A stretch of DNA of 64,000 nucleotides from a virus, in IMG/VR virus record IMGVR_UViG_3300009149_000019, positions 1-64,000 of that record; one strand, written 5' to 3'. This document shows positions 3 to 41,961 of the stretch, piece after piece. The first letter of the stretch is position 1. Every line of letters begins with the position of its first letter. Position numbers and translations under genes: made by a program. The notes below the pieces were generated by a model. That model was not told the origin of the DNA, made no database searches, and saw only the letters and a list, made by a program, of their open reading frames with translations.

Positions 3-188
3 TTAGAAAGATTTTTTAGAAACATGTATGAGAACATAGGGAACGATTTTCCTGAACTGTCTATTAGGGATCAGCTTTCCCTGACAGTTGAGGCCTGCAA
101 TGCCATGGGTGGAGCAGACCCACGAGTCAGAATGCTCAGGAGAATATCTGAGCAAAAAGAAAAGAAAAATTCTAAGGAGGCAATATGA
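3..188 (+). CDS. hypothetical protein, 3' part only (runs off the window start)
   Basis: Open frame LERFFRNMYENIG...SKEAI*; its stop overlaps the ATG of the next gene (ATGA). Confidence 0.6.
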   Translation, partial: LERFFRNMYENIGNDFPELSIRDQLSLTVEACNAMGGADPRVRMLRRISEQKEKKNSKEAI

Positions 189-4332: not shown

Positions 4333-4530
4333 ATGGCGAAGATTATTATAGAGTTTGATGAGAACGGTGACATGACAGCTGATGCCCAGGGTTTCGAGGG
4401 GTCCTCCTGTGAAGAGGCCTTAGACTTCCTGAATGAGATCGGTGTTGTCTCAGAGAAAACCAAGAAAGCTGAATGGTACAAAAAGAACCTGAATAAGGTG
4501 GGGCAGGTAAAGGCGAAGCTTTGTGGATAG
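4333..4530 (+). CDS. DUF2997 family protein
   Basis: IIIEFDENGDM..AQGFEGSSCEEA..KKAEWY pattern; canonical AAA-DUF1257-DUF2997 order. Confidence 0.75.
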   Translation: MAKIIIEFDENGDMTADAQGFEGSSCEEALDFLNEIGVVSEKTKKAEWYKKNLNKVGQVKAKLCG

Positions 4531-5188
4531 CCTGGTACTTGATGTCAGGTGGGAGATAACCAAGAAAAAGCGTGGTAACCTCTGCCAACAGGTAAAGCTT
4601 TTCTTGGTGAGAAAGGATAGGTTATCAGAACAGATGACGGCAGCCTTGAAGTCATTTAGGTTTGATAGCAGCTATAAGTTACCATTTCCTATCTATACGG
4701 GTGTCACTTCCCTTAAGGATGGTCAGTACCTATCTGACCATTGTATGTGTTTTGATATCCTAAGAGTACGACTTAAAAGCAACTGGGCAGCTGTTAATGG
4801 TCAGCACTTAATACTGACAGGCTTGGACTGTAGCCATGACAACTGTAAACACAGCGGTAGGAGCTTTATACCGAGTAGAGACTGTGTAATGTGCTTACCA
4901 TGGTTCTCTGGTGTAAATCCAAAGGAGAACCTTAAGATGGAAGAAGTCTTTTCTAAAGTGAGAGAAGACATTATTGAGGAGTGGGGAATCTACATAGATA
5001 GTTTGGGATTGACAGAGTACGGTCATCTTGGTAGAATGCTTCGGCTGCCAAAAACAAGTACAGAGTCTAAAATAAGGATGCCTGCTTGTTACGGTGACGT
5101 TGATACTTTAGATGAGAACTGCCTTTCTTTATGCACTTTTTTCTATGCGTGCGCAGAAAGGGTTGAGAAGGCTCATCCTGAGCTTTAG
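4523..5188 (+). CDS. hypothetical Cys-rich protein
   Basis: 221-aa ORF with Cys clusters, including C-terminal PACYG-x8-C-x3-C-x5-C. Confidence 0.65.
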   Translation: MDSLVLDVRWEITKKKRGNLCQQVKLFLVRKDRLSEQMTAALKSFRFDSSYKLPFPIYTGVTSLKDGQYLSDHCMCFDILRVRLKSNWAAVNGQHLILTGLDCSHDNCKHSGRSFIPSRDCVMCLPWFSGVNPKENLKMEEVFSKVREDIIEEWGIYIDSLGLTEYGHLGRMLRLPKTSTESKIRMPACYGDVDTLDENCLSLCTFFYACAERVEKAHPEL

Positions 5189-5199
5189 TTAGTTCGAGA

Positions 5200-5600
5200 C
5201 TCAGTCGGGTGGGTCTATAAAAAAAGCCGATCCCGACTATTGTGTGAGAAGGGAACCCTCTATGACTGTGGTCTGACTCGCGATAAGACTGCAGTAGCAT
5301 GATCATAGGTGGGGAGCACAGCTAAAACTAGTAAACACCTTCCTTTATTTCTTTCCCCGTCATGCTGGATAAGGGAGTATGTCTGCCCCAGCCCTAGCAG
5401 TCCTTTGGGGTGAATACATACCTTCTGAGGAGGAATGTGAGGAAGTAGGGTATGTGATGTGCCTATGCTGCACACGCTGAGACTGTTAACAGAGCTTAAA
5501 CATGGAGGGTCAGTCACGGGTCATGTGCCTTTAGAGATTAGGCACAAGCTGAGCTGGAGTGAGCCAGTTGACGGTGACCACCCTCCGTGTAAGGGCTCAC
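5200..5600 (+). ncRNA. candidate large structured non-coding RNA of unknown class
   Basis: ~420-nt gap between the stop at 5188 and the SD-led ATG at 5615, containing many complementary helices with G-U pairs. Confidence 0.55.
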
Positions 5601-5614
5601 TAAAGGAGGAAATT

Positions 5615-5977
5615 ATGATACAGGATGAGATAGCACGTATATTACAAGGAGAGGAGGACGAAGTGGACTGGATCATGTTAGACGAATCCAGAGGTTTTGT
5701 TGTGGACTCAAGAATGACAAATGATGGAACTGTTTATGCAGTTGCCCATTTTAAGATAGGAAGTGAGCAGCTTCATAACATCAGGCTTAAGTCAGTCCCT
5801 ACTAGCAAAGATTTTGATATTGAGGCTAGAGGAGAAGCTGCTACCCTTCTAATGTTTCACTGGAGGACTGGCCTTGAGATTGATAACGTGAAGGCTGGTA
5901 GAGAGGACGAGGAGATGAGAGCTCTTTACTTACAGAAAGTAAAGGAAGTCCTCATCACGAAAACGTATAAAAATTAA
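5615..5977 (+). CDS. hypothetical protein
   Basis: Start reassigned from 5459 to the in-frame ATG at 5615 after AAGGAGG. Confidence 0.75.
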   Translation: MIQDEIARILQGEEDEVDWIMLDESRGFVVDSRMTNDGTVYAVAHFKIGSEQLHNIRLKSVPTSKDFDIEARGEAATLLMFHWRTGLEIDNVKAGREDEEMRALYLQKVKEVLITKTYKN

Positions 5978-10026: not shown

Positions 10027-11070
10027 ATGTTTGTACCAACGAATGATGTACTGAGCACCACTCAGACTAAGAAGGGTTCGAGGGCTCAGTGCCATATCTG
10101 TCCACGAGAGTGCCTTCTTTCTTCTGGGGAAATAGGAGTGTGTGGGGGAAGAAAAAATGCTCAGGGTAAGTGTGTTCCTGTTGTAAGGGATTACTACCCA
10201 GCGTTAATGATAGATCCCATAGAAAAGAAACCATTCTATCACTTCTATCCTGGTAAGCAGGTTTTGTCTATTGGAGCATTAGGCTGCAGCCTTAAGTGTG
10301 GTTTTTGTTATAATAAAGAGCTGTCTTGTCCGGAATCATATCCGGAAGATCAGGACTCTCGTGCCGTAGATAAGAAGATGGTAGAGCTACTTATGAGTGA
10401 CTCTGACATTATCGGCATTGCTTTCAGTTTTACGGAGCCATCTGTGTGGATTGAAACCTACATGAAGTACATGGCTATGGCCACGGTATTTAGGAAAAAA
10501 GTTCTCCTTAAAACAAATGGATACATAAACCCACAGCTATTTATGGAGATGTTTATACTGAATCCATTACACGCCGTAAACCTGGACATAAAAACCATGA
10601 ACCCAGAGACATTCAGGACGGTCTGTGATGGGGACCTTTCCGTCGTACTTCATAACGCGGAGTTTCTTGGGGAGGATAAAAGGGAGTATCATGATCCCAT
10701 TCATCTTGAAGTATCTCACTTAATGATCCCTGGTGTAACTGATAAGGAGAGCGAGTTTAGAGAGCTTGTTACCTTTATTGAGTCCAAGCTTGGGAATGAT
10801 ACACCACTCCATATAGCCACGTATCATCCAGTACCGTGGTTTCCACAGGCACCTAGTGCTACTCCAGAAGAAACTGTAAAACGTTTTTATAAGATTGCTA
10901 AGGACAGGTTGAAGTATGTTTATCTGGAACACACGTTGTATCCGGAATGTGCTGCTACTGTCTGTCCTAAGTGTGGACAGAAAGCAATCCAGAGAGATGA
11001 TTTTGAAGTTACTATCTCTAAGAGGTGTAAGCACTGCTTGGATATGGTGTGGCCTCCCTACAAATTATAG
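10027..11070 (+). CDS. AmmeMemoRadiSam-type radical SAM enzyme (AmrS-like)
   Basis: CHICPRECLL..G.C..R, DPIEKKPFYHFYPG, GCSLKCGFCYN, TPLH, C-terminal CPKC. Confidence 0.9.
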   Translation: MFVPTNDVLSTTQTKKGSRAQCHICPRECLLSSGEIGVCGGRKNAQGKCVPVVRDYYPALMIDPIEKKPFYHFYPGKQVLSIGALGCSLKCGFCYNKELSCPESYPEDQDSRAVDKKMVELLMSDSDIIGIAFSFTEPSVWIETYMKYMAMATVFRKKVLLKTNGYINPQLFMEMFILNPLHAVNLDIKTMNPETFRTVCDGDLSVVLHNAEFLGEDKREYHDPIHLEVSHLMIPGVTDKESEFRELVTFIESKLGNDTPLHIATYHPVPWFPQAPSATPEETVKRFYKIAKDRLKYVYLEHTLYPECAATVCPKCGQKAIQRDDFEVTISKRCKHCLDMVWPPYKL

Positions 11071-15826: not shown

Positions 15827-15862
15827 AAGGGGGCACGAGAATCAGTTCTTGTGCTCCCTTTT
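15827..15862 (+). terminator. Rho-independent terminator-like hairpin
   Basis: AAGGGGGCACGAGAA-TCAG-TTCTTGTGCTCCCTTTT. Confidence 0.75.
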
Positions 15863-15879
15863 CAATTCAGGAGGTCACT

Positions 15880-18958: not shown

Positions 18959-18992
18959 AAGGGGCATGAGTATAATGTTCATGCCCCTTTTT
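18959..18992 (+). terminator. terminator-like hairpin with a TATAATG loop
   Basis: GGGGCATGAG-TATAATG-TTCATGCCCC-TTTTT. Confidence 0.75.
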
Positions 18993-19134
18993 AACAAATT
19001 TTAGGAGAGAAAGATGAAAAGACGACTAGTGACAACAAATAAGAAACGTTGTCTTATACAAATAACTTATCTTTTTGTCTGCTTTCTACAGACAATAAAA
19101 AGCCCTGGACGAGGGCTTTATCTTAGGAGGGGTA

Positions 19135-41742: not shown

Positions 41743-41785
41743 TCTTTTTTGAGTTTGGTACTTTGGGCATTTTAGAAAAATACCA

Positions 41786-41815
41786 TTGTACTTCCAATAT
41801 ACTCTCTGCTATACT
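41786..41815 (+). promoter_or_regulatory. sigma70-type promoter upstream of the RNA polymerase genes
   Basis: TTGTAC-18 nt-TATACT with an extended -10 TG. Confidence 0.55.
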
Positions 41816-41961
41816 GAGTGCGACCGACTACAAGCAGTAGTTGTATAACAATGCACTACTGCATAAATTTATGGCGGAGCGCTCGCCGGTAGCTGAGAGA
41901 CTTAAAAAAACAACAATGGTCTAACCACTCTTAGCTTCTATAGTGCACAGGAGGGTTTTCC

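Follow-up and report, generated by a model that had tools for sequence, protein, structure and literature searches.

The 426-nt intergenic gap at positions 5189..5614 (+ strand) of the phage record IMGVR_UViG_3300009149_000019 ends in a 107-nt domain (5492..5598) that is predicted to form a three-way junction and that, as judged from single-sequence folding, is the exceptional structure of this gap. Tentatively, and with somewhat less than even confidence, we interpret the gap as a non-coding leader read from the + strand and assign to its 3' junction a role in cis, as a boundary or a processing site, which might be of the RNase III type. The element lies outside ROOL, GOLLD and every Rfam family and, on the sequence comparisons made here, appears to be a singleton at present.

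Genomic setting and folding of the gap

The window, i.e., the whole stretch of DNA analysed, comprises the first 64 kb of the 84,002-bp record, for which CheckV estimates a completeness of 33%. The same phage is present in four assemblies, with contigs of 84,634, 84,002, 84,329 and 2,971 bp. Despite the CheckV value, the three longest contigs, which stem from independent assemblies, are nearly equal in length; this could mean that about 84 kb is the full genome length or that a common set of repeats interrupts every assembly. The overall GC content is 42.7%, and ORFs of at least 70 aa on the + strand occupy 94% of the window, almost all genes, including all those adjoining the gap, being encoded on that strand.

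The gap extends from the stop codon of an ORF of 221 aa (4523-5188) to the ATG at 5615 of a gene for a 120-aa protein (hereafter gene 5615). As the preceding sequence-only reading had it, this is the largest gap, namely the longest stretch devoid of a plausible + strand ORF both in the window and in the complete 84,002-bp record. With a GC content of 0.50 in 5201-5600 versus 0.42 for the record, it ranks at the 97th percentile of the record. Neither a second copy in the record nor internal repeats, iterons or a change in GC skew were found. A dispersed repeat or mobile element was rejected because the gap is a single copy in the record, and a replication origin or other DNA-level site because iterons, repeats and a GC-skew change are missing and the gap is GC-richer, not AT-rich.

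Folded as a whole on the + strand, the gap reaches -151.4 kcal/mol versus -132.9 ± 5.9 kcal/mol for dinucleotide shuffles (z -3.1), while the - strand gives z -1.6; the + strand signal is due to the 3' domain alone. This domain has a minimum free energy (MFE) of -56.6 kcal/mol with 40 pairs and is closed by an interrupted helix of about 22 bp, made up of 5492-97/5593-98, 5500-10/5580-90 and 5513-17/5574-78 (6+11+5 pairs), within which two abutting hairpins, 5524-46 and 5547-69, are located. Against dinucleotide shuffles, it attains z -6.0 to -7.0 on the + strand (5486-5600/5614) and is, after correction for GC, the most stable + strand window among ~5,600 windows of 120 nt across the whole record. 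The complement, at -47.3 kcal/mol (z -5.6), folds less well by 9.3 kcal/mol. Four of the 40 pairs are G-U pairs, and all four turn into A-C mismatches on the opposite strand, which fits an RNA read from the + strand. The sequence-only reading had likewise favoured a + strand RNA structure, which this strand bias and the G-U pairs bear out.

The helices proposed there for the 3' domain are present as written, with pair probabilities in the 426-nt ensemble of 0.98 (5492-97/5593-98), 0.99 (5500-10/5580-90), 1.0 (5513-17/5574-78) and 0.97 (5524-30/5540-46). An exception is the proposed AGCTGG/CCAGTT helix, with a probability of 0.05, in place of which a shifted pairing, 5547-51/5565-69 plus 5553-55/5562-64, is predicted. 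Two further pairings were rejected. An alternative of 10 bp between 5255-64 and 5501-10 has an ensemble probability of 0, and a long-range duplex of 5172-5192 with 5596-5629, at -25.3 kcal/mol and z -2.9, is yet equalled by 5% of control pairs from the genome.

At the opposite end of the gap, 15 nt past the upstream stop codon, a hairpin AGUCGGG/CCCGACU with a run of seven A in its loop (5203..5238, + strand) is predicted. Its helix, 5203-09/5232-38, was also part of the sequence-only reading and has a pair probability of 0.94 in the 426-nt ensemble. The hairpin is modestly stable (z -2.5 on the + strand, -2.8 on the - strand), and no U-tract follows it on the + strand, unlike the stem-plus-U-run of the phage's other terminators.

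Between the two lies a central part (5239..5491) with no structure beyond chance (z +0.5 to -0.6), the individual pieces scoring z -0.6 (5189-5490), +0.5 (5234-5505) and +0.6 (5310-5490). It features a 10-bp hairpin 5265-74/5286-95, a pyrimidine tract at 5338-58 and a Shine-Dalgarno-like purine tract at 5427-50, and neither strand shows a convincing ORF. The claim that some 400 nt are densely paired, for which a comparison of folding energy with shuffles had been named as a check, thus holds for the 107-nt junction (z -6 to -7) and the small hairpin (z -2.5), but not for the ~250 nt between them, which behave like shuffled sequence. This is mirrored by the individual helices drawn there: 5265-74/5286-95 reaches a probability of 0.95; the enclosing helix 5260-65/5303-08 exists as written, but with a probability of just 0.43; 5416-23/5448-55 and 5241-46/5471-76 can be drawn, but attain 0.01 each; and the pairing 5295-5303/5359-67, proposed as a competitor and ranked here as unsupported, has 0.19. 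The known copies of the phage are near-identical, with flanking proteins 99-100% identical and three differences in the gap, namely the substitutions 5350 T>C and 5452 A>G and the change of a single base in the run of A at 5219. Both substitutions disrupt MFE pairs of the middle part, and hence the fold of this part gains no support from natural variation.

Start of gene 5615 and transcription of the gap

Four nucleotides past the junction follows the Shine-Dalgarno sequence AAAGGAGG, which together with the ATG of gene 5615 occupies 5602..5617 (+ strand); the arrangement AAAGGAGG-N6-ATG is the standard site of this phage. The statement that the element ends right at the Shine-Dalgarno sequence of the downstream gene is therefore accurate. 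This sequence is predicted to be single-stranded, with an unpaired probability of 0.94 locally and of about 0.7 in long contexts, and masking of the site was rejected on these grounds. A free Shine-Dalgarno sequence makes the junction unlike a translational off-switch, and the notion of a switching leader, voiced in the sequence-only reading, finds no backing in these values. The sole match resembling an anti-Shine-Dalgarno sequence, CCUUUAG at 5528-34 with CUAAAGG at 5600-06, would require the hairpin 5524-46 to melt.

Among all GGAGG-(4..8)-ATG sites in the record that precede an ORF of at least 50 codons, 54 out of 54 are located near the head of the frame and none deep in a long gene; 5615 is, for this reason, very likely the true start. 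The gene (5615..5977, + strand) encodes an orphan protein of 120 aa, which in some assemblies is called with an N-terminal extension of 50-55 aa spanning the junction (the long form in three assemblies, 5615 in one). The 120-aa protein falls into none of the Pfam or PHROG families; it matches large repeat proteins weakly and in several stretches, one of these proteins carrying 12 SBBP beta-propeller repeats.

Other coding solutions for the gap were rejected. Six stops (TAG, TGA) in the common frame and the perfect ribosome-binding site of the downstream gene itself speak against linking the two flanking ORFs through an intron or through recoded stop codons. The + strand ORFs of 33 and 34 aa have poor scores, lack a properly spaced Shine-Dalgarno sequence and have no homologue. 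In the former (5379-5480), the codon score is 0.06 and the Shine-Dalgarno spacing 1 nt; it ends in a Cys-rich sequence (MCLCCTR), the common variant 5452 A>G brings the number of Cys to five, and radical SAM genes are found 5-10 kb away (10027-11070 and near 14.6-19 kb). That this ORF is a RiPP precursor was rejected because of the 1-nt spacing, the low codon score and the common variant being non-synonymous.

The best promoter match in the first 20 kb is a sigma-70-like sequence with an extended -10 element, TTGACA-17-TG-TAGAAT (5009..5037, + strand), which agrees with the consensus at 11 of 12 positions and is situated within the 3' end of ORF 4523-5188. As a consensus match, it is a candidate start of a leader of ~570 nt running through the gap to gene 5615. 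No promoter match was found inside the gap. A + strand intrinsic terminator is likewise missing from 5189-5614, the junction being followed by ACUAAAGGAGG, not by a U-tract, and read-through from upstream is consequently expected. Elsewhere on the + strand, terminators composed of a stem plus a U-run are present at 15827-15866, 18960-18992, 19099-19125, about 57000 and about 60480, each of these canonical sites being followed 10-30 nt downstream by an AGGAGG ribosome-binding site; thus, the phage or host polymerase appears to use standard terminators.

Nine public runs contain sequence from 5000-5800. Gap sequence is present in contigs of RNA libraries: two aquatic RNA-seq runs from two studies yielded contigs of 272 nt (5234..5505) and 151 nt (5355-5505), and a third run of the same campaign one of 234 nt (5237-5470). 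Contigs of this kind reveal nothing about the strand, the ends or the level of an RNA, and DNA may be present in RNA libraries as well. Position 5505, at which both the 272-nt and the 151-nt contig stop without loose ends, falls five bases inside the junction's 11-bp stem, while one DNA contig from soil (5358-5520) extends past it; a DNA run from soil spans both borders of the gap together with its flanks. The pattern weakly suggests that an RNA ends within the long stem at 5505. A caution is that 272 equals 2 x 151 - 30 and that the 151-nt contig coincides exactly with the position of one mate; the two RNA runs may contain copies of one fragment, which could be either a molecule with defined ends or technical carry-over in one campaign. 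In the two RNA runs and the third run, no contig covers 4500-5233 or 5506-6200; as these are contigs of low depth from runs that were chosen by this very stretch, these holes in coverage are no evidence of weak expression of the flanks.

Relatives and known RNA families

Searches of Rfam 15 retrieved no family at gathering score anywhere in the 64-kb window, and a permissive search of the gap and its parts returned only eukaryotic snoRNA and miRNA models with E-values of 1.6-9, far below the gathering scores. No match was obtained to Rfam models of known cis-regulatory RNAs and self-cleaving ribozymes, including riboswitches, leaders, hammerhead, twister and HDV-like ribozymes. ARAGORN predicted no tRNA or tmRNA gene in the 64-kb window, in line with the failure of the sequence-only reading to match the element to tRNA or tmRNA; the cmscan-type check that it had recommended produced no known family at gathering score either.

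ROOL and GOLLD RNAs often neighbour tRNA genes, according to the family descriptions. The suggestion of a large RNA in their spirit found no support. On 5100-5700 and its sub-stretches, the ROOL and GOLLD models gave no match at E<=10, only 5492-5598 and 5203-5238 exceed shuffles, the structured part measures 107 nt with the rest shuffle-like, and tRNA genes are not found nearby. The element shares with ROOL and GOLLD, which are large ornate RNAs of phages and bacteria (PMC5737381; bioRxiv 10.1101/2024.12.08.627333), that it is phage-borne, non-coding and intergenic and that its structure is unexplained. In contrast to these large, ornate, multi-domain families with many members, it is structured over 107 nt only, has no tRNA gene next to it and yielded no relatives.

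At the protein level, collections of 5.8 billion clusters and of 1.84 billion representatives were queried with the 221-aa, 120-aa and 85-aa products (the last from an ORF on the - strand of the gap). The two flanking proteins proved to be orphans in a space of about 15 billion proteins, the only hits being 99-100% identical copies from the same phage. A comparison with GenBank phages by blastn returned nothing, whether the gap or 12 kb served as query. Back-translated scans were empty too, both those of IMG/VR with the two flanking proteins and that of JGI metagenomes with the 120-aa protein. Exact 18-23-mers in IMG/VR, JGI metagenomes and GTDB genomes revealed no diverged relative. In IMG/VR, 51 loci contain a nearby AAA ATPase at about 30% identity; these loci show no synteny, no nhmmer or blastn match, and no match to the covariance model of the junction (R1).

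The nearest phage, G001, has an RNA polymerase beta' with 62% identity, and the common core of the two genomes is confined to 31.7-48.5 kb, where it is syntenic at 40-62% amino acid identity. This phage contains no AAA ATPase, no 120-aa protein, no match to R1 and nothing matching the first 15 kb of the record. Since the left 15 kb, including the gap, are absent from G001, the gap belongs to a variable accessory arm.

A second long structured leader was found in a 219-nt gap (41743-41961) in front of the RNA polymerase beta' gene, with -66.2 kcal/mol and z -4.5, its core being a long irregular hairpin of about 100 nt. It is absent from G001, where two extra genes and a gap of 38 nt are present instead. 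Structured leaders, hence, recur in this phage.

Interpretation and competing explanations

In the reading we tentatively prefer, the gap would be a long + strand leader or spacer, transcribed ahead of gene 5615, with only its last quarter, the junction 5492-5598, representing evolved structure. The junction might serve as a double-stranded processing site of the RNase III type, as an end-protecting structure, or as both, and would thereby uncouple the mRNA of gene 5615 from upstream read-through RNA—a role that is proposed because the upstream gene is devoid of a canonical terminator—while leaving the ribosome-binding site single-stranded and unmasked. The hairpin 5203-5238, shortly past the upstream stop codon, would add a minor second structure, and the 250 nt that separate the two show no folding beyond chance. 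Substrates of RNase III are helices of about two turns (~20 bp or more), in which internal loops are allowed and whose stem the enzyme cuts in a staggered manner; the predicted closing helix of the junction, with its 6+11+5 pairs at probabilities of 0.98-1.0, is of this size, and the shared contig end at 5505 would be a weak hint of such a cut. Against the leader or processing reading stands that there is no homologue, hence no pair with covariation behind it, and that the nearest relative has no counterpart of the region. Moreover, 58 codons ahead of gene 5615 are free of stops in its frame and have a coding-like score, the RNA contigs come without strand, ends and level and may share their ends through carry-over, and the promoter is a consensus match only.

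It is unlikely, in our estimation, that a separate phage ncRNA of about 270-400 nt that acts in trans arises from the gap; it would span either 5234-5505 alone or ~5203-5598, each end being formed by a stable structure in the latter case, and would accumulate far above the flanking mRNAs. The RNA-library contigs, including that of the third run, do fall wholly within 5234-5505, two of them ending at 5505, in a stretch at the 97th percentile of GC and without coding potential on either strand, and the stable 3' junction could act as a protective 3' end. However, the part seen in RNA libraries is precisely the shuffle-like one (z +0.5) in which natural variants break the predicted pairs, no terminator precedes gene 5615, the gap holds no promoter match, the searches found neither an Rfam family nor a second copy or relative, and the contigs are silent on level, ends and strand. 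That such a discrete ncRNA, including or bounded by the 107-nt junction and accumulating in natural communities, founds a new class of regulatory or structural RNAs of phages is viewed as unlikely. Improbable as well is a functionless relic, in which decayed or imported sequence in the variable left arm would persist and the junction would be a leftover, e.g., of a lost element or gene, or an imperfect palindrome at the DNA level. Such a relic would be in keeping with the absence of the first 15 kb from a relative that is only moderately close, with the orphan status of both flanking genes, with the featureless middle of the gap and with the high stability of the junction also on the - strand (z -5.6), but a nested three-way junction at z -7 is not expected from decay. 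The confinement of G-U pairs to one strand and the placement of the junction end 4 nt ahead of the ribosome-binding site also speak against it; no repeats, iterons or change in GC skew suggest a DNA-level site, and, read in the frame of gene 5615, the junction yields identical amino acids in three assemblies, a comparison that does not cover synonymous differences.

A protein-coding role of the junction receives a small probability from us: gene 5615 would start at GTG 5459 or ATG 5465 (GTG 5450 in the variant with G at 5452) and encode 170-175 aa, the 120-aa form perhaps being made as well, from the internal start. The 58 open codons upstream of 5615 score 0.119 per codon, which corresponds to the 23rd percentile of true coding windows and is reached by 4.4% of composition-matched stop-free shuffles; 5489-5608 scores 0.18, the in-frame extension 5459-5614 has a coding-like score, and gene callers of three assemblies picked the long form. 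Yet no GGAGG-type site precedes 5459 or 5465, as opposed to the perfect site at 5615, which the caller of one assembly selected and which, by the count of 54/54, belongs near the head of a frame and not deep in a long gene. Moreover, 58 open codons are within chance for 54 genes, the extension is rich in His and Pro and has no homologue, and z -7 is extreme for coding sequence. Very unlikely indeed is a unit on the - strand, be it a small RNA or the gene of 85 aa (5517..5260), ending at a weak hairpin followed by U7 (5238-5218). Apart from this terminator-like site and the open frame of 85 codons, it could draw on the variants at 5350 and 5452, which are both third-position and synonymous in that frame, and on the shared contig end at 5505, which could be a 5' end. 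Its codon score of -0.05, however, is the same as that of spurious antisense ORFs (median -0.03); the ORF has no homologue, falls short also in its ribosome-binding site and is not itself on record as a called protein, and its start, at 5517, falls beyond the RNA contigs. No - strand promoter match occurs upstream of 5505, the terminator stem comprises 5 bp only, one G-U pair included, the - strand folds worse, and two variants sharing a codon phase amount to a one-in-three chance.

Several known systems invite comparison with the leader or processing reading. In the early region of phage T7, RNase III processing hairpins are located between genes. Hairpins of this type are also known from the leaders of E. 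coli rnc, pnp and metY-nusA-infB, which are cited in the review PMC3997798. Like these sites, the junction has a long, irregular stem of about two turns, is placed in a leader or spacer shortly before a ribosome-binding site, lies in a phage transcription unit without a terminator at that place, and has a possible RNA end in its stem. It differs from the simple hairpin of RNase III sites in that the apex is a junction with two hairpins, that the processing role is a proposed one, and that there is no sequence similarity to known sites.

5' stabilisers are stable 5'-proximal stem-loops which protect the message and are found at the very 5' end of the transcript. Such elements of bacterial and phage mRNAs are mentioned in PMC3997798. 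The junction resembles them as a very stable structure directly 5' of an accessible Shine-Dalgarno sequence; in contrast to them, it may sit hundreds of nucleotides into the RNA unless this is processed. With riboswitches, RNA thermometers and Shine-Dalgarno-masking leaders, it has in common a structured 5' leader just upstream of the start, but, different from masking leaders, the site is predicted to be free (0.94), no Rfam cis-regulatory model matches, and no stable masking fold was found.

With its 107 nt, the junction is well defined and would be inexpensive to cleave or probe in vitro, and the covariance model R1 is ready for future relatives. If the gap were to encode a stable ncRNA, it would stand for a new family, already with a first sign of being expressed in nature. 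If, as we tentatively prefer, the junction is a processing or boundary element, this uncultured soil and groundwater phage would separate its messages by double-stranded RNA, not by terminators. Separation of messages by double-stranded RNA structures is known from T7-like phages, and the leader 41743-41961 before the polymerase gene would fit the same pattern.
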